Virus record (IMG/VR): IMGVR_UViG_3300044295_000252
Location: 2,682-66,681 of that record
Reading direction: 5' to 3' (one strand)
Origin: a virus
Lineage: Duplodnaviria > Heunggongvirae > Uroviricota > Caudoviricetes
Length of the DNA: 64,000 nt
Both the position numbers and the translations under genes were made by a program. Positions 35,168 through 50,255 of this stretch are shown here, piece by piece. Position 1 is the first letter of the stretch. Each line of letters begins with the position of its first letter. Below the pieces are notes generated by a model, which saw only the letters and a list, made by a program, of their open reading frames with translations, had not been told where the DNA came from and did no database searches.

Positions 35168-36805
35168 ATGAGTCAACAAATACAAGTCACAAAAAGAAAT
35201 GGCAGTAAGGAATCACTAGAGCTAGAAAAACTTCACAAAGTAGTTTTTTGGGCAACGGAAAACCTAAATAATGTAAGCGCAAGTGAAGTTGAAATTAAAA
35301 GTCATATACAGTTTTACAACGGAATAAAAACAAGAGACATTCAGGAAACACTGATCAAAAGTGCAGCAGACTTAATTGATGAAGATCATCCTAATTACCA
35401 ATACGTAGCCGGTAGATTAATTAACTATAATTTGCGTAAGGAAGTATATGGTGATATTACTCCATGGCCACTAGTTAAACTAATAAAACGCAATGTAGAG
35501 ATAGGTTACTATGACAGCGAAATATTAGACAGTTACAGCACGGACGAACTATCAGAATTGGGCGAATACATTGATCATGAGCGTGATATGAAGTTTACGT
35601 ATGCTGCAATGGAACAATGGCGTGGCAAATACTTGGTAAAAAATCGTGTTACCAGTGAGATGTATGAAACACCACAAGTGGCATATATGTTGATCGCAGC
35701 CACACTTTTTGCAAAATATCCCAAAGAAACCAGACTGCGTTGGGTTAAAGATTATTACGATGCGGTTAGCCAACACTTTATTAGTTTGCCTACTCCCATG
35801 ATGGCAGGTCTACGTACACCACAGCGACAGTTCAGTAGTTGTGTACTAATTGAAACCGACGACAGTTTGGATAGCATCAGTGCTACTAGCGCCAGCATCG
35901 TTCGATACGTAAGCCAAAAAGCAGGGATTGGCATTGGTGGTGGTCGTATTCGAGCATTAGGATCACCAATACGCAAGGGCGATGCTTTTCACACAGGGGT
36001 AATACCATTTTACAAAGTTTTCCAAGCAGCTACTCGCAGTTGCAGTCAGGGTGGTGTACGCAATGGTGCAGCTACATTGTACTATCCAATTTGGCACTTG
36101 GAAGTTGAGGATTTGTTGGTATTGAAAAACAATAAAGGTACCGAAGACAATCGCATTCGCCACATGGATTATGGTGTTCAATTTAATAAATTGATGTATG
36201 AACGTTTGCTTACTGGTGGCGATATTACGTTATTCAGTCCACATGATGTACCTGAAATGTATGATGCTTTCTTTGCGGATCAGGAGCGATTTAAAGAACT
36301 ATATGAACGTGCCGAACGCAATACAAAACTAAAAAAGAAAACAGTTCGTGCACTAGATTTATTTTCGGCATTCATGAACGAGCGCAAGGATACAGGGCGC
36401 ATTTATTTGATGAACGTAGATCATGCCAATACTCACAGCAGTTTCCTATCCGAACATGCACCAGTTAGGATGTCCAATCTTTGCTGTGTAGATGGTGACA
36501 CTCAAGTAACGTTTATGCACGAGGACGGAAAAATAGAGCAGATGTCAGTATCAAGTGCTGTTGAAAGATTCGAATTGGGAAATTTGACAAATTCAAAGAT
36601 TAAGAGTTTTGTGGCTGGAAAAGTCTCTTGGGAAGATATTTCAGCAGCGATTAAAACGAAAACGGTTACCGAACTTTACGAGATTGCGGATGAGTGCGGA
36701 AACATTTTGAGATGCACCGGTGATCATTTAGTTTTTACCAAAAATCGAGGGTATGTTCGTGCTGATGAATTAAGAGAAACCGACGAGCTATGCGTTGAAA
36801 TTTGA
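35168..36805 (+). CDS. nrdA: Class Ia RNR alpha subunit, N-terminal half, fused to split-intein IntN
   Basis: ATP cone (IQVTKRNG), SLPTP, QFSSCVLI, GGVRNGA and SNLC; then CVDGDT begins an intein and the ORF stops. Confidence 0.92.
   Translation: MSQQIQVTKRNGSKESLELEKLHKVVFWATENLNNVSASEVEIKSHIQFYNGIKTRDIQETLIKSAADLIDEDHPNYQYVAGRLINYNLRKEVYGDITPWPLVKLIKRNVEIGYYDSEILDSYSTDELSELGEYIDHERDMKFTYAAMEQWRGKYLVKNRVTSEMYETPQVAYMLIAATLFAKYPKETRLRWVKDYYDAVSQHFISLPTPMMAGLRTPQRQFSSCVLIETDDSLDSISATSASIVRYVSQKAGIGIGGGRIRALGSPIRKGDAFHTGVIPFYKVFQAATRSCSQGGVRNGAATLYYPIWHLEVEDLLVLKNNKGTEDNRIRHMDYGVQFNKLMYERLLTGGDITLFSPHDVPEMYDAFFADQERFKELYERAERNTKLKKKTVRALDLFSAFMNERKDTGRIYLMNVDHANTHSSFLSEHAPVRMSNLCCVDGDTQVTFMHEDGKIEQMSVSSAVERFELGNLTNSKIKSFVAGKVSWEDISAAIKTKTVTELYEIADECGNILRCTGDHLVFTKNRGYVRADELRETDELCVEI
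36485..36802 (+). mobile_element. Split intein N-fragment (106 aa)
   Basis: Cys1 CVDGDT; block B CTGDHLVFTKNRGYVRADEL; no endonuclease domain; in-frame TGA at 36803-05. Confidence 0.9.
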
Positions 36806-36813
36806 TTACCAAG

Positions 36814-36846
36814 TATAAATATACATGTGGAGGAACCATATGTATA
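36814..36846 (+). promoter_or_regulatory. Late promoter TATAAATA plus an 11-bp hairpin hiding the endonuclease SD and ATG
   Basis: TATACATGTGG (36820-30) pairs with CCATATGTATA (36836-46), one G-U pair. Confidence 0.75.
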
Positions 36847-37769
36847 AACAACTTTACAAAACGATCATTGATACTGCGAAGAAAGAAAACAGAGTGAAAT
36901 ATCAGGGGATATATTACGAAAACCATCATGTTGTTCCGGAGTTTATGTTTAAGAATAGGAAACGTTCGGGGCCAAAAGGACATTTGGATGGCAATCCAGA
37001 TAGTAAGGAAAATTTAGTTTTACTTACATTTTCGGAACATCTTTTAGCTCATTATTATCTATTTGAAATATACAAAAATACTCGTTATGCTTATTCTGCT
37101 GGGTCTGCTTTGCAGTTTTTCTTTGTTAAGGCAACTGGGAAACATAAAAGACAATTAAATTTATCAGAAGTTGATCAAAAACTCCTAAAGGAGATGGAAC
37201 ATTTACGATTAATTGGGATAGAAAGTATAAGTAAAGCAAGGCGTGGGAAAATGCCAGCAATTGACGCCATTACTAGGGAAAAGAAAGGTTCGGTACCGGT
37301 AGATCATCCTAAAGTATTATCTGGAGAATGGGTACATCATAGCAAAGGTGTTCCGGGAAAATCCGGAAGAGACATGAATGGCTCAAAAAATAACAACTTC
37401 AAAGAAATGAGCAAAGAACGTAAGGAGCGGTTGTGGAGATGTGTTGTTAATTCGTGCCAAGATAATTATTTGAAGAAAAAATTACTTTTGGAAAAGATTA
37501 AGGAAGAATTCACCGAATTTAAAAAAATTTCATTAGTTTGGGTATTGAATAACTATGGTTCTTTGAAAAATTTATTGATTGAAACAAACAAAAATTTAAA
37601 CACGAATATTAAATATGAATCATATCATAGAAGTACAGAACAAAGAAAAATAGCCTCAAGAAACTCATCCAAGCATCGTTGGTATAATAACGGCATCAAA
37701 AATGTACGTGTAACAAGTGAAAAAGATTTTTGTAAAAATAACCCAGAATTTATTTCAGGAAGAATTTAA
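36840..37769 (+). CDS. Free-standing HNH homing endonuclease (MobE-like)
   Basis: YKTII..A...YYENHHVVP...NLVLLTFSEHLLAH; AT-rich. SD GGAGG at 36829-33 favours ATG 36840 over 36825. Confidence 0.8.
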   Translation: MYKQLYKTIIDTAKKENRVKYQGIYYENHHVVPEFMFKNRKRSGPKGHLDGNPDSKENLVLLTFSEHLLAHYYLFEIYKNTRYAYSAGSALQFFFVKATGKHKRQLNLSEVDQKLLKEMEHLRLIGIESISKARRGKMPAIDAITREKKGSVPVDHPKVLSGEWVHHSKGVPGKSGRDMNGSKNNNFKEMSKERKERLWRCVVNSCQDNYLKKKLLLEKIKEEFTEFKKISLVWVLNNYGSLKNLLIETNKNLNTNIKYESYHRSTEQRKIASRNSSKHRWYNNGIKNVRVTSEKDFCKNNPEFISGRI

Positions 37770-37771
37770 AA

Positions 37772-37873
37772 ATGATCAAAATTAAAAAAATTAAGGTTGC
37801 TCCCACAGATGTTTATGACATTTCGGTTCCGGAAACCAAATGTTTTTTTGCAGATAATATCTTGGTCCATAAC
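37772..37873 (+). mobile_element. Split intein C-fragment (34 aa)
   Basis: Block F VYDISV, terminal His-Asn, and +1 Cys at 37874-76. Confidence 0.9.
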
Positions 37874-38857
37874 TGCGAGATAACTCTACCCACACGACCA
37901 TTAACGGACATTAACGACGAAAATGGTCGTATCAGTCTTTGTACGTTGTCAGCAATTAATTGGGGTTTAATTGATGATCCCAAAGACTTTGAAAAATATT
38001 GTACCCTAGCAGTTCGTGGTTTAGATAGTCTACTAAGCTACCAAAATTATCCTATCAAAGCGGCACAAATTGCTACTCGTGAATTTAGACCACTGGGTGT
38101 AGGTATTGTGAACTTTGCATATTGGCTAGCCAAGCATGACCTAAAATACAGTGATGATTCAGCATTAGATCTTGTAAATGAATACGCAGAAGCATGGAGT
38201 TATTATCTTATAAAAGCCAGCGCAGATTTAGCAGCCGAATTAGGCGCTTGCGAACTAAATGCCCAAACAAAATACGCACAGGGTATACTGCCAGTTGATA
38301 CTTATAAGGACGAAGTGGATGAGTTGGTAACTGACAAATTACGTATGCCCTGGGAACAATTGCGAGCACAATTAAAAGCAACAGGTATACGCAATGCCAC
38401 CTTAATGGCTATAATGCCAGCAGAAACCTCGGCACAGATCAGCAATAGCACAAATGGTGTTGAGCCGCCACGCAGCTATGTTAGTGTAAAACAAAGCAAG
38501 GATGGCGCACTGAAACAAGTTGTCCCCAAATTTCGACGTCTAAAGAACAAATATGAACTGTTGTGGGATCAAAAAAGCCCAGAGGGATATTTGAAAATTA
38601 TGGCCGTATTGCAGAAATATATCGATCAAAGCATCAGTGTCAATACCAGCTACAATCCGCAATTCTATGAAGAAGAAAAGATCCCCATGAGCGAAATGCT
38701 GCGACACGTAATTATGTGTTACAAATATGGGTTAAAAACTCTCTATTATTTTAACACCTATGATGGCCAGGGAGAAGTAGACGTAAACAAAATGATCGCG
38801 TTAAAACAGGATGAAGTCAAGCAGGAGTCAGAAATCTGCGACAGTTGCGCCATTTAA
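37772..38857 (+). CDS. nrdA: Split-intein IntC fused to the C-terminal half of RNR alpha
   Basis: MIKIKKIK...VYDISV...FFADNILVHN then CEITLP, CTLSAINW, MPAETS, NGVEP, GLKTLYY and terminal CDSCAI. Confidence 0.92.
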   Translation: MIKIKKIKVAPTDVYDISVPETKCFFADNILVHNCEITLPTRPLTDINDENGRISLCTLSAINWGLIDDPKDFEKYCTLAVRGLDSLLSYQNYPIKAAQIATREFRPLGVGIVNFAYWLAKHDLKYSDDSALDLVNEYAEAWSYYLIKASADLAAELGACELNAQTKYAQGILPVDTYKDEVDELVTDKLRMPWEQLRAQLKATGIRNATLMAIMPAETSAQISNSTNGVEPPRSYVSVKQSKDGALKQVVPKFRRLKNKYELLWDQKSPEGYLKIMAVLQKYIDQSISVNTSYNPQFYEEEKIPMSEMLRHVIMCYKYGLKTLYYFNTYDGQGEVDVNKMIALKQDEVKQESEICDSCAI

Positions 38858-38913: not shown

Positions 38914-40059
38914 ATGACACATTCGGTATTTCCCTTAAACAAAAAGAAAAGCCATCTTGAAGCGTTGATGTTTTTAGACCCTAGTGGTCCAGTTGATATT
39001 CAGCGATATGAGGAACTCAAATATAAACAGTTCGAACGTTTGACTGAAAAACAAATAGGATTTTTTTGGCAACCAACTGAGGTCGACGTGTTGCGTGATG
39101 CAAAAGATTTTAAAGATCTTAATAAACATGAGCAACATATCTTTACAAGCAATCTCAAGCGTCAGATATTGCTAGATAGTGTACAGGGGCGCAGTCCTAA
39201 CCTAGCATTCCTTCCGCTAGCCACTATTCCAGAACTAGAAACGTGGATGGAGATTTGGAGTTTTAACGAAACTATACACAGCAGAAGTTATACACACATT
39301 ATACGTAATATCTATCCAGATCCTGGTAAGATATTTGATGAGTTAAAAGAGACCAAAGAAATAGTAGACTGTGCAGTAGACATCAGCAAGTATTATGATG
39401 ACTTAATTGATTACAGTTTGTGGTATCGGCTGTTGGGTAAAGGCACACATACTATAACAAGTGGCAAAGACACAAAAACCATAGAAATAAAAGGTAGGGA
39501 ACTAAAACGTAGATTGTGGTTAGCTATTAACAGTGTAAATGCGCTGGAGGGTATACGTTTTTATGTCAGCTTTGCTTGTAGCTGGGCATTTGCGGAGTTG
39601 AAAAAGATGGAGGGCAATGCAAAAATCATTAAACTGATTTGCCGTGACGAGAATCTACACTTGGCCAGCACACAGACCATGCTAAAACTATTGCCCAAAG
39701 ATGATCCAGTATTTGAAAAAATTGCAGAGGAAACGCAGGCCGAATGTGAGGCAATGTTTATAGCAGCAGCCGAGCAGGAAAAGGCCTGGGCACGTTATTT
39801 GTTCCGTGATGGTAGTATGATTGGTCTCAACGAACAACTGCTATGCAATTATGTAGAGTTCATTACGAATAAACGTATGAATGCAGCTGGTCTTAAATCC
39901 CCATTCAAACCGCAAAGTGACCCCTTGCCCTGGACGGCAAAGTGGATCAGCGGCAGTGAGGTTCAAGTAGCGCCACAGGAAACTGAAATCAGCAGCTACA
40001 TTATTGGTGGTACCAAGCAGGATATAACTGAAAATACTTTTAAAGGAATGAGTCTATGA
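38914..40059 (+). CDS. nrdB: Class Ia RNR beta subunit
   Basis: FFWQPTEV, QILLDSVQGR, ETIHSRSY, LEGIRFYVSFA, RDENLH and APQETEISSY. Confidence 0.95.
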   Translation: MTHSVFPLNKKKSHLEALMFLDPSGPVDIQRYEELKYKQFERLTEKQIGFFWQPTEVDVLRDAKDFKDLNKHEQHIFTSNLKRQILLDSVQGRSPNLAFLPLATIPELETWMEIWSFNETIHSRSYTHIIRNIYPDPGKIFDELKETKEIVDCAVDISKYYDDLIDYSLWYRLLGKGTHTITSGKDTKTIEIKGRELKRRLWLAINSVNALEGIRFYVSFACSWAFAELKKMEGNAKIIKLICRDENLHLASTQTMLKLLPKDDPVFEKIAEETQAECEAMFIAAAEQEKAWARYLFRDGSMIGLNEQLLCNYVEFITNKRMNAAGLKSPFKPQSDPLPWTAKWISGSEVQVAPQETEISSYIIGGTKQDITENTFKGMSL

Positions 40060-40313
40060 CATTAACAATTTACAGCAAGGCTAATTGTCCCTTTTGTGAG
40101 ATGGCCAAAAAATACTTGCAAAGCAAAAACATTAACTATCAGGAACTACGTATTGATCAAGATGCAGATGCTAGACAGTTTTTGCTAAGTGAAGGGCATC
40201 GCAGTGTACCACAGCTATATCTAGATGGCAAATTATTTGTTCAGGGCGGTTACGATGGGTTAAAAGAATTAACCGAACAGCAATTAATGGATCGGTTGAC
40301 ACCACTATGCTAA
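40056..40313 (+). CDS. Glutaredoxin (RNR electron donor)
   Basis: CPFC active site and SVPQLY...GGYDGL. Confidence 0.9.
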   Translation: MTLTIYSKANCPFCEMAKKYLQSKNINYQELRIDQDADARQFLLSEGHRSVPQLYLDGKLFVQGGYDGLKELTEQQLMDRLTPLC

Positions 40314-48172: not shown

Positions 48173-48202
48173 TTGACATTGTATAAATAAGAGTATACAA
48201 TG
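48173..48202 (+). promoter_or_regulatory. Overlapping sigma70 (TTGACA-N17-TACAAT) and late (TATAAATA, 48182-89) promoters in a perfect 9-bp inverted repeat
   Basis: CATTGTATA (48177-85) pairs with TATACAATG (48194-202); SD GGAG begins at 48202. Confidence 0.65.
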
Positions 48203-48212
48203 GAGATATCAA

Positions 48213-49082
48213 ATGAAGTGTCAAAACCCCAAATGCAATAAAGAAGCAGCAATAAACACCAAAGGTAAACAGCTCAAACATTGTTCCATAAAATGTAGAG
48301 GTCAGGGAAACTCATTATTGAGTCGTGAAAAAGCCAAAGATACTTGGATCAAAAAATATGGGGTTGAAAATCCGCAACAAGTTAAAGAGATCAAAGAGCG
48401 AACAAACAGAACTGTTCAAAAGATTTACGGAGTAGCTAACGTATCGCAAGCTAAGATTATCAAGGAAAAAAAGAAACAAACTACGTTCAAAAATTACGGT
48501 GTTGAGCACCCACTTCAAAGTAATATAATTAAGGACAATGTCAAAAAAACCAATCTTGAAAGATATGGATGTGAGAATGTTTTTCAAAGTGAAGAGATAA
48601 AGGATAAAATGAAGGAAACTTATCTAGCCAAATATGATGTTGAGTTTCCTGGTCAAGTGGATGCAATAAAACAGAAGATAAAAGAAACCTTGTTGGAAAA
48701 TTATGGTGTTGAAAATCCCAGTCATTCCGCAATAGTGCAAAGAAGAATCATTGCGTCTGGAGTTAAACGAAAAGAATACGTTATGCCGTCAGGGAAGATT
48801 GTTTTAGTGCAAGGATACGAAAATAAAGCTCTAGATTATCTATTACAGGAATATCAAGAAAATGACATAATCGTGGGAGAACCAGAAAAGATACCGGTTA
48901 TTGATTATGTAGATGCTGATGGTAAAGCAAGAAGATATTTTCCAGACATTTATATTCCAAAAGATAATTTGCTTGTTGAAGTGAAATCAACATATACTTA
49001 CGAAAAAGACAAACAACGCAATCTTAAGAAAAAAGCTGCATGTGAAGAATTAGGTTACAAATTCAAATTTTACATAGGATAA
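48213..49082 (+). CDS. Putative free-standing homing endonuclease (zinc finger, YGV repeats, PD-(D/E)XK domain)
   Basis: C..C...CS.KC; six YG(V/C)/YDV repeats about 23 aa apart; YFPDIY...LLVEVKS; AT-rich inside a GC-richer region. Confidence 0.7.
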   Translation: MKCQNPKCNKEAAINTKGKQLKHCSIKCRGQGNSLLSREKAKDTWIKKYGVENPQQVKEIKERTNRTVQKIYGVANVSQAKIIKEKKKQTTFKNYGVEHPLQSNIIKDNVKKTNLERYGCENVFQSEEIKDKMKETYLAKYDVEFPGQVDAIKQKIKETLLENYGVENPSHSAIVQRRIIASGVKRKEYVMPSGKIVLVQGYENKALDYLLQEYQENDIIVGEPEKIPVIDYVDADGKARRYFPDIYIPKDNLLVEVKSTYTYEKDKQRNLKKKAACEELGYKFKFYIG

Positions 49083-49085
49083 ATT

Positions 49086-50255
49086 ATGCGAACTATCGAC
49101 GCTAAGACCAAAGTTTGGGACGGCAACGGATTGCCCATGGAACAGGGAGTTTTTGAACAAACTGCCAAGTTGGTTACCTTGCCCTTTGTCAAGGGAGTTC
49201 GTCTGATGCCGGATGCTCACGTTGGCATAGGCTCCACTGTTGGATCCGTAATCGCTACGCAGAACGCAATTATCCCGGCTACCGTTTCGGTAGATATTGG
49301 CTGTGGTATGAATGCGGTTCGCACCAGCTTGCGGGCCGAGGACTTGCCGGACAGCCTGCGTGATGTTCGCCTGCAGATTGAGCGCGATGTGCCCCTGGGC
49401 GCTGGTGGTGCTCACAAAACGGACTTTGATCCGTTTCCGCAACCCCTGGGTCAACGTGCGCGCCAGCTGTTCATCAAGCATCCCGGCCTGGAGACCAAAC
49501 AATGGCATCGCCAATTGGGCACCCTGGGTTCGGGCAATCACTTTATCGAACTGTGCTTGGACGAAGCCGGTGCGGTGTGGATCATGCTGCACTCGGGCTC
49601 GCGTGGTATTGGCAACACCATTGGTCGTCATTTTATCGAACGTGCGAAACGACTCATGGAGCAATATTTTATCACGCTGCCGGATCGTGATCTCGCTTAC
49701 CTGCCGGATGGCACCCAGGACTTCAACGACTATGTTGAGGCGCTGACTTGGGCACAGGACTATGCGCGTGAAAACCGTGCGGTAATGATGACTGCGGTGA
49801 TCGCGGCGCTGCGCCGGCATATCCCTGTGGAGTTTGAACTCACTCACGAAGCCATCAACTGCCACCACAATTATTGCGAGATTGAGAATCACTTTGGACA
49901 GAACTTGTTCATCACTCGCAAGGGTGCGATCCGTGCGCGTCAGGGTGACCTGGGCATTATCCCCGGCAGCATGGGTGCGAAAAGCTACATCGTGCGTGGT
50001 CTTGGCAACACCGAGAGCTACTGCTCATGTTCGCATGGAGCAGGTCGTAAGATGTCGCGCACCGAAGCGACCCGACGTTTCACGGTGGAAGACCTCAAGC
50101 GGCAGACCGAGGGTGTGGAGTGCAACAAGACCTCGGCGGTGATCGATGAGATTCCTGGTGCTTACAAAGATATCGATGTGGTGATGGAAAATCAAAACGA
50201 CTTGGTGGAGGTTGTGCATACTCTGCGTCAAGTACTTTGTGTCAAGGGTGCGTAA
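49086..50255 (+). CDS. rtcB: RtcB RNA ligase
   Basis: MPDAH, VDIGCG, LGTLGSGNHFIE, LHSGSRG, CHHNY, RKGA, IPGSMG, SHGAGR and DEIPGAYK. Confidence 0.95.
   Translation: MRTIDAKTKVWDGNGLPMEQGVFEQTAKLVTLPFVKGVRLMPDAHVGIGSTVGSVIATQNAIIPATVSVDIGCGMNAVRTSLRAEDLPDSLRDVRLQIERDVPLGAGGAHKTDFDPFPQPLGQRARQLFIKHPGLETKQWHRQLGTLGSGNHFIELCLDEAGAVWIMLHSGSRGIGNTIGRHFIERAKRLMEQYFITLPDRDLAYLPDGTQDFNDYVEALTWAQDYARENRAVMMTAVIAALRRHIPVEFELTHEAINCHHNYCEIENHFGQNLFITRKGAIRARQGDLGIIPGSMGAKSYIVRGLGNTESYCSCSHGAGRKMSRTEATRRFTVEDLKRQTEGVECNKTSAVIDEIPGAYKDIDVVMENQNDLVEVVHTLRQVLCVKGA

Follow-up and report, generated by a model that had tools for sequence, protein, structure and literature searches.

A fractured phage nrdA gene with a predicted split intein and a MobE-like homing endonuclease gene between its halves

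How could a phage obtain a working large subunit of ribonucleotide reductase (RNR) from a gene that is broken inside the active-site loop of the enzyme? This question is raised by positions 35168 to 38857 of a 64,000-nucleotide (nt) stretch of DNA, hereafter the window, which forms part of the IMG/VR virus record IMGVR_UViG_3300044295_000252 (137 kb, rated 39% complete) and derives from a freshwater phage that has not been cultured and is probably of the jumbo type. In this phage, class Ia nrdA consists of two open reading frames (ORFs) on the same strand, 35168-36805 (545 amino acids, aa) and 37772-38857 (361 aa), and between them lies a middle ORF of 309-314 aa (36825-37769), also on that strand, in a frame other than that of the nrdA halves. 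The explanation that we consider very probable is that the gene is a fractured nrdA whose two protein halves are joined by trans-splicing of a class 1 split intein related to NrdJ-1, and that the intein forms a mobile unit with the MobE-like endonuclease encoded between the halves.

The nrdA halves and the intein parts

The features that carry this explanation are the following:

35168-36484, plus strand: nrdA N-extein, residues 1-439, ending SNLC with the thiyl-radical Cys (Pfam; alignment to R1)
36485-36805, plus strand: intein N-part, 106 aa, with Cys1 at 36485-36487 and the TGA stop at 36803-36805 (Pfam Intein_splicing, E 2e-7)
36840-37769, plus strand: putative MobE-like free-standing homing endonuclease with HNH-type motifs, 309 aa (the mechanically called ORF starts at 36825)
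37772-37873, plus strand: intein C-part, 34 aa (Pfam Intein_splicing positions 122-155)
37874-38857, plus strand: nrdA C-extein, 327 aa, with Cys+1 (position 440) followed by Glu441, and a C-terminal Cys pair at its end (Pfam; alignment to R1)

The first ORF ends with ...MSNLC/CVDGDT...CVEI (the slash marks the predicted splice junction) followed by TGA, and the last one begins with MIKIKK...ILVHN/CEITLP. In the Pfam search the first ORF matched the ATP-cone, the RNR all-alpha domain and barrel positions 1-257, and the last ORF matched barrel positions 213-523. Residues 340-439 of the N-extein aligned with residues 340-439 of Escherichia coli R1, with Cys439 as the final residue, whereas the C-extein was alignable from Glu441, which is its second residue; the break as read from this alignment is therefore between residues 439 and 440 (E. 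coli R1 numbering). Taken together, the halves contain the ATP-cone, the all-alpha domain, the ten-stranded barrel and the N437/C439/E441 loop of a class Ia NrdA.

The canonical splicing residues of a class 1 split intein were complete and distributed over separate ORFs: the N-terminal nucleophile Cys1, block B T78-G-D-H81 (T-x-x-H, at 36716-36727), block F VYD, block G His33-Asn34 (37868-37873, within ILVHN/C at 37859-37876) and the following nucleophile Cys+1. The Pfam family Intein_splicing matched both ORFs at the expected ends (31.2 and 20.8 bits), and the nearest solved relative of the N-part was the metagenomic NrdJ-1 split intein (8ubs, E 1e-11), the match of the C-part being weak. Conservation of these residues was close to complete. 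Cys1, Thr and His of the N-part were invariant in 30 relatives, as were V14, Y15, D16, H33 and N34 of the C-part, together with the following C35 (Cys+1), in 29 relatives; in the larger collection, 116 of the 117 N-halves had Cys1 and 115 had TxxH, and His-Asn-Cys was found in 78 of the 80 C-halves, the remaining two being unparsable. Net charge was -8 for the N-part and +4 for the opening 12 residues of the C-part.

A predicted complex of the N-part and the C-part obtained a score of 0.79 (0.00 for the best of three controls), a level attained by 58 of 80 solved complexes and 2 of 110 mismatched pairs; contact agreement between runs was at least 93% and partner pLDDT at least 77. As a model, this result shows likeness to solved split inteins rather than binding of the present copy. 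The guanine-plus-cytosine content was 32% in the intein C-part and the endonuclease gene, and 40% in the intein N-part and the exteins; since the C-part resembles the endonuclease gene in this respect and the N-part the exteins, the two intein halves may have different histories.

Joining of the exteins is expected to give a NrdA of 766 aa with the junction SNLCCEITLPT and the loop N-L-C-C-E. A search with the N-extein alone recovered 119 closest relatives (78-91% identity), all of them uninterrupted NrdAs of about 762-782 aa, and the four closest read SNLCCEITLPT, identical to the predicted junction. One of these four was found in a syntenic contig (L010; 545-aa pectate-lyase-like gene, 152-aa ORF, nrdA, nrdB), and its 765-aa NrdA was 88% identical to the joined 766-aa protein with a single one-residue gap. 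Residue 440 was variable among the 119 uninterrupted relatives (A 64, T 23, C 20, S 8, G 3, Q 1), whereas it was Cys in all 68 C-halves with the intein after the thiyl Cys, which fits a role as the +1 nucleophile. Another parse of the junction, SNL/CC..., was rejected, given that its product would be one residue short in the N-x-C-x-E loop.

An earlier, sequence-only reading of the window had described the three ORFs of a fractured nrdA, intein parts of 106 and 34 aa, a break right after the thiyl Cys and a joined sequence of about 766 aa, and all of this was borne out. Its comparison of the loop with that of T4-like phages needs a correction: the T4-like relative examined, TG1, reads SNLCAEI and has its intein one codon upstream.

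Relatives, insertion registers and horizontal spread

A search of public metagenomes with the intein end of the N-half detected the N-part in 117 clusters, on contigs of up to 363 kb. The insertion was located after the thiyl Cys in about 100 clusters and one codon earlier in 15, and the suggestion of the sequence-only reading that the allele may be new was overstated: more than 100 public metagenome clusters, as well as the Klebsiella phage KP13-7, carry the intein at the same site. Two adjacent codon registers, SNL/C...HN/CxE and SNLC/C...HN/CE, were seen in one intein lineage (relatives P0102-P0117, P0144, P0176, P0184 and P0185, and the TG1 locus, L004), the second of which, after the thiyl Cys, requires Cys at residue 440.

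The region between the intein parts differed among the relatives. An orthologous endonuclease, 61-70% identical, was present in the related loci L009, L015 and L016; L005 contained a 218-nt endonuclease remnant which retained a degenerate box and the C-terminal codons; and in L006-L008 the endonuclease was absent and the stop and start codons overlapped. A contiguous intein, with a linker of 7-12 residues between the parts, was found in P0085, P0072, P0077, P0079, P0139 and P0177. In P0077, P0079, P0139 and P0177 the protein stopped about 18 residues into the C-extein and ended in a conserved tail of about 45 aa (...FKL.LD.G..ITLPGQHKVLL...), which suggests another break with an unusual Cys-less N-fragment.

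Comparison of the window with L005, L006 and L009 gave identities of 76-88% for the intein and 40-48% for the exteins. Intein divergence was 0.09-0.14 at nonsynonymous sites (pN) and at least 0.73 at synonymous sites (pS), which were saturated. Within the NrdA clade of the window this intein was found only in P0100 and P0087, whose copies resembled that of the window less closely (70% and 67%) than did the inteins of the distant clade. Because intein and extein identities are incongruent, these comparisons indicate that the intein/endonuclease element moved horizontally between phage nrdA genes, with the intein under purifying selection.

Among deposited phages, related versions were found in Klebsiella phage KP13-7, Yersinia phage TG1 and the CP220-like Campylobacter phages. 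When phage records were searched by megablast for near-identical DNA, the sole match was 117 nt of nrdA from Serratia phage SP1, and no paper describing the nrdA split inteins of TG1 or KP13-7 was found.

As the sequence-only reading had recognized, the fractured-gene arrangement is already known (Dassa et al. 2009, PMC2677866); it is common in metagenomes, and the present locus is a further member. Its two variations, a MobE-like type of endonuclease and the use of the NrdJ-type site in a class Ia enzyme, are minor. In the collection of Dassa et al. the insertion point of the metagenomic NrdA inteins immediately precedes the thiyl Cys, that of NrdJ-1 is one residue further C-terminal, and the endonucleases of fractured genes were only of the GIY-YIG and Vsr-like types, unlike the MobE-like one with HNH-type motifs described here. 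Like NrdJ-1 and the fractured genes (PMC2677866; 8ubs, 9omb), the locus has intein parts attached to the host halves, which are separated by a co-oriented, free-standing endonuclease gene preceded by a hairpin and a TATAAATA box, and its insertion immediately follows the thiyl Cys; the charge polarity, with an acidic N-part and a C-part that begins basic, is likewise that of NrdJ-1 (PMC2677866). It differs from NrdJ-1 in that the host is a class Ia NrdA instead of a class II NrdJ, and in that the +1 residue is Cys instead of Ser.

The Klebsiella jumbo phage KP13-7 (OP617745) has its intein at the same site (SNLC/CVTGET...VHN/CEI; N-part 50% and C-part about 60% identical), but a GIY-YIG-type gene lies between the halves and its nrdA is further interrupted. 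In this phage (L003, 2035-7565) nrdA was found in at least four pieces, most of them annotated as hypothetical. A 128-aa HNH-like ORF follows residue ~292, where 13 extein residues were unaccounted for and the gap may be an intron, and a second split intein (...SHN/TSSQ) with a 323-aa HNH-like ORF follows the GIY-YIG-bearing one.

The T4-like Yersinia phage vB_YenM_TG1 (NC_028820) has the same order of elements (nrdA-N with the intein N-part, endonuclease, C-part ending ILVHN with nrdA-C), a 33% identical endonuclease and a TATAAATA box in a hairpin covering the ribosome-binding site. Its intein, however, lies one codon upstream (SNL/CLSGES...HN/CAEI), with the thiyl Cys as the +1 nucleophile, and its N-part was too divergent for detection by tblastn. 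A second homing endonuclease gene (519 aa) is located between the nrdA C-half and nrdB of TG1 (L004, 4924-6483). Published work also describes a PolB of Pseudomonas jumbo phage MIJ3 (PMC6892783) whose split-intein halves are separated by a free-standing HNH endonuclease; this case differs from the present locus in the host gene and in an intein that begins with Ser.

The endonuclease gene and its 5' region

The sequence-only reading had placed an HNH gene between the halves. An endonuclease gene with HNH-type motifs is indeed found there, although translation more likely starts at the ATG at 36840, which a GGAGGAA Shine-Dalgarno sequence precedes, than at the beginning of the ORF. The protein matched phrog_655 ('homing endonuclease', E 1.7e-13) and phrog_12434 ('HNH endonuclease', E 6e-5). 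In tblastn searches it matched the gene that splits nrdA in TG1 (33% identity across 87% of its length) and numerous T4-type genes that bear a homing endonuclease annotation, including one called mobE. The family comprised 1063 representative clusters (E up to 0.001). Seven residues (E27, H29, H30, N58, E66, H67 and H71) were invariant in 45 relatives, and in an AF2 model (pLDDT 91) they are located on a strand-strand-helix core (strands 26-30 and 59-63; helix 64-78), so that the conserved His-His...Asn...His series of HNH-type enzymes sits on the predicted fold. Matches below the Pfam cut-off were obtained for the L009 orthologue (AHH, E 0.0012) and for the TG1 protein (HNH, E 0.16). No match was found among the sequences of solved structures. 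The full model recovered nothing in Foldseek and, in VIA-align, only a weak TetR-like helix-turn-helix (residues 188-255, Z 5-6); the model of the N-terminal domain gave weak, non-significant HNH-domain rows in Foldseek (E 1.7-8) and, in VIA-align, nothing above Z 5 and no HNH entry.

Two further features precede the endonuclease gene:

36814-36821, plus strand: TATAAATA box, a putative promoter of T4-type late consensus, 18 nt upstream of the endonuclease start codon
36820-36846, plus strand: predicted 11-base-pair RNA hairpin, the 3' arm of which contains the endonuclease start codon and the 5' arm of which overlaps the end of the TATAAATA box

The box was kept before the orthologous endonuclease genes, as TATAAATA in L009 and L015 and as GATAAATA in L016. 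The hairpin of the window had a folding energy of -13.2 kcal/mol (z -3.7; none of 200 shuffles equally good), and equivalent hairpins were found in L009, L015 and L016 (z -2.9, -3.1 and -5.3, respectively), with two pairs altered on both sides between the window and L016. In TG1 and KP13-7 the hairpins were longer and the box lay in the loop. A hairpin and a late-promoter-like box in the 5' region of the endonuclease gene are thus found here as in the fractured genes described in PMC2677866.

Of the four TATAAATA copies in the window, three are followed by a start codon at a distance of 18-24 nt, which in two cases is that of an endonuclease gene. A second homing endonuclease gene was located at 48182-49082 (289 aa; phrog_3339 and phrog_12131, E 1e-25 to 1e-27), directly upstream of an RtcB-like ORF at 49086, with a TATAAATA box 23 nt before its start.

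The arrangement resembles that of nrdA-a/mobE/nrdA-b in Aeromonas phage Aeh1 (PMC3045599, and Friedrich et al. 2007 as cited there), where a MobE-type gene splits nrdA and is regulated through a hairpin and a late promoter. For mobE, experiments summarized in PMC3045599 and PMC2677866 showed that read-through RNA is translationally silent and that the late-promoter RNA lacks the 5' hairpin arm.

Three more features lie at the 3' end of the endonuclease gene and downstream of nrdA:

37757-37762, plus strand: AGGAAG inside the endonuclease 3' end, read from the sequence as the likely Shine-Dalgarno of the nrdA C-half, 9 nt ahead of its ATG (37772)
38914-40059, plus strand: nrdB, RNR small subunit, in the same operon-like block (Pfam Ribonuc_red_sm, E 3.7e-45)
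40056-40313, plus strand: glutaredoxin-like gene with a CPFC motif, the counterpart of which carries PF00462 in L005, L009 and L011

A scan for sigma-70 promoters and terminators gave nothing beyond chance, and the C-half was without a separate promoter.

Under the trans-splicing explanation, the two nrdA halves would be translated separately, and the intein parts would then associate, trans-splice and join the exteins into the 766-aa NrdA with the N-L-C-C-E loop, which would work with the adjacent NrdB and glutaredoxin. In read-through transcripts the start codon of the endonuclease would be buried in the hairpin, and a transcript from the TATAAATA box, without the 5' hairpin arm, would limit endonuclease synthesis to late infection, as for Aeh1 mobE. 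Intein and endonuclease would form one mobile unit spreading between divergent phage nrdA genes.

Alternative explanations and significance

Trans-splicing is proposed on the basis of the anatomy of the locus, its conservation, its relatives, their horizontal distribution and an independent assembly, and several points weigh against the proposal. The spliced product is a prediction from the genes, and none of the sequencing runs listed was an RNA run containing the stretch. Both Intein_splicing scores are below the Pfam curated cut-off (35.8 bits), and the prediction of the complex may echo memory of solved split inteins. The endonuclease had no significant HNH match in Pfam, nor did the fold searches recover an HNH structure at significance. 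Use of the TATAAATA box as a promoter in this phage is not favored by its frequency, since four copies were counted in the window and 5.5 were expected, so that the box is not enriched. Finally, a second, intact RNR gene may be encoded elsewhere in the genome, of which the record covers only about 39%.

The halves could also act as a gene in pieces whose products assemble without a covalent bond, the intein halves acting solely as docking domains like the tails of Aeh1 NrdA-a and NrdA-b. The split NrdA of Aeh1 is functional without ligation and its extra tails are kept in the mature proteins (PMC3045599), and the tight association predicted for the intein halves suits docking equally well. We nevertheless consider docking improbable. 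The break of the present gene lies inside the active-site loop (Cys439/Glu441), whereas Aeh1 nrdA is split downstream of the N-x-C-x-E loop and has no intein motifs, only short retained tails (PMC3045599); with intein blocks present and the break at 439/440, an intein-less split of the Aeh1 type was rejected. The nucleophiles and the terminal Asn would be unneeded for docking, yet they are near-invariant, and position 440 is fixed as Cys only in the intein-bearing alleles. The closest relative, NrdJ-1, is moreover called an ultra-fast splicer in the recent literature.

Somewhat less probable still is a decaying nrdA, in which the insertion inactivated the gene and the phage uses another RNR or that of the host. 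Some nrdA genes of Campylobacter phages with related inteins have been called degenerating (PMC3653736), the gene is broken at several places in relatives such as KP13-7, and the incomplete record would leave room for another enzyme. In the window, however, the three ORFs are intact and the key residues of RNR and intein are all present; strong purifying selection acts on intein and exteins across many lineages, and nrdB and the glutaredoxin gene are kept next door.

The stretch was found in freshwater metagenome runs from nine studies. Run X4, which comes from a study other than the likely source, contained a 1483-nt contig (36454-37936) that runs across the two junctions, with the TGA and the endonuclease gene included, at zero differences, and more than 100 homologous N-halves terminate at the same codon as that of the window. 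Since an independent contig is identical and the homologues share this end, the TGA at 36803 is not a sequencing error, a possibility that the sequence-only reading had left standing together with misassembly; error and misassembly are both excluded for practical purposes. Removal of the insert at the RNA level, its other reservation, is unlikely because no Rfam family matched 36300-38100 (E up to 1), because the endonuclease ORF accounts for 930 of the 966 nt between the halves, with flanks of only 34 nt and 2 nt, and because endonuclease-free relatives keep two ORFs with overlapping stop and start codons; a group I intron was rejected on the first two grounds. An artefact or an endonuclease-carrying intron is therefore hardly credible, even if the window derives from a metagenome assembly, phage RNR genes often carry endonuclease-bearing group I introns (PMC3653736) and both nrdA halves share one reading frame.

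Run X4 also contained a candidate empty site. Its contig graph forked 30 nt before the N-junction into an occupied arm (depth 13.7) and an empty arm consisting of a 94-nt contig (depth 6.1), and the two depths add up to that of the common upstream contig (19.2). The 94-nt contig joins 36483 to 37874 via one letter, T, giving AAT CTT TGT TGC GAG, that is N-L-C-C-E. This one short contig from one run would seem to be what is expected from a precise allele free of intein and endonuclease in a near-identical phage, and occupied and empty copies would then seem to occur side by side in one natural sample. Exact-pattern scans of viral_contigs and metagenome_contigs gave no match to the empty-site allele, and a protein search found no near-identical uninterrupted NrdA, the best being 91% identical. 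In run X7, contig depth fell from about 30 over the exteins and intein to about 9 within the endonuclease gene (36843-37685) before recovering to 27; in most genomes of that sample, the same intein halves may enclose a different endonuclease or have lost it.

It is conceivable, if less than likely, that intein and endonuclease are still homing and have spread part-way through a natural freshwater phage population, as the candidate empty site of run X4 would suggest. In addition, one intein lineage occupies the two adjacent registers, the second of which needs Cys440. If this were true, the whole life cycle proposed for fractured genes would be directly testable in one system, given the endonuclease-bearing, remnant, endonuclease-free and contiguous forms among the relatives.

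With trans-splicing as the preferred explanation, the locus would be a fractured gene of the ordinary kind, though an unusually complete one, and the current view of inteins is left unchanged. As judged from its genes, it would represent an essential enzyme in which the radical-bearing active-site loop is completed only by trans-splicing. In practical terms, the intein is a close relative of NrdJ-1, which is among the fastest splicing tools, and has Cys at positions -1, 1 and +1. The relatives constitute a near-complete evolutionary series, from contiguous inteins to split ones without an endonuclease, with a remnant, with a MobE-like or with a GIY-YIG endonuclease, next to uninterrupted genes in syntenic genomes. 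This series supports the stepwise model of the origin and spread of split inteins, and ties it to the case of Aeh1 mobE, where an intein origin was only speculated.

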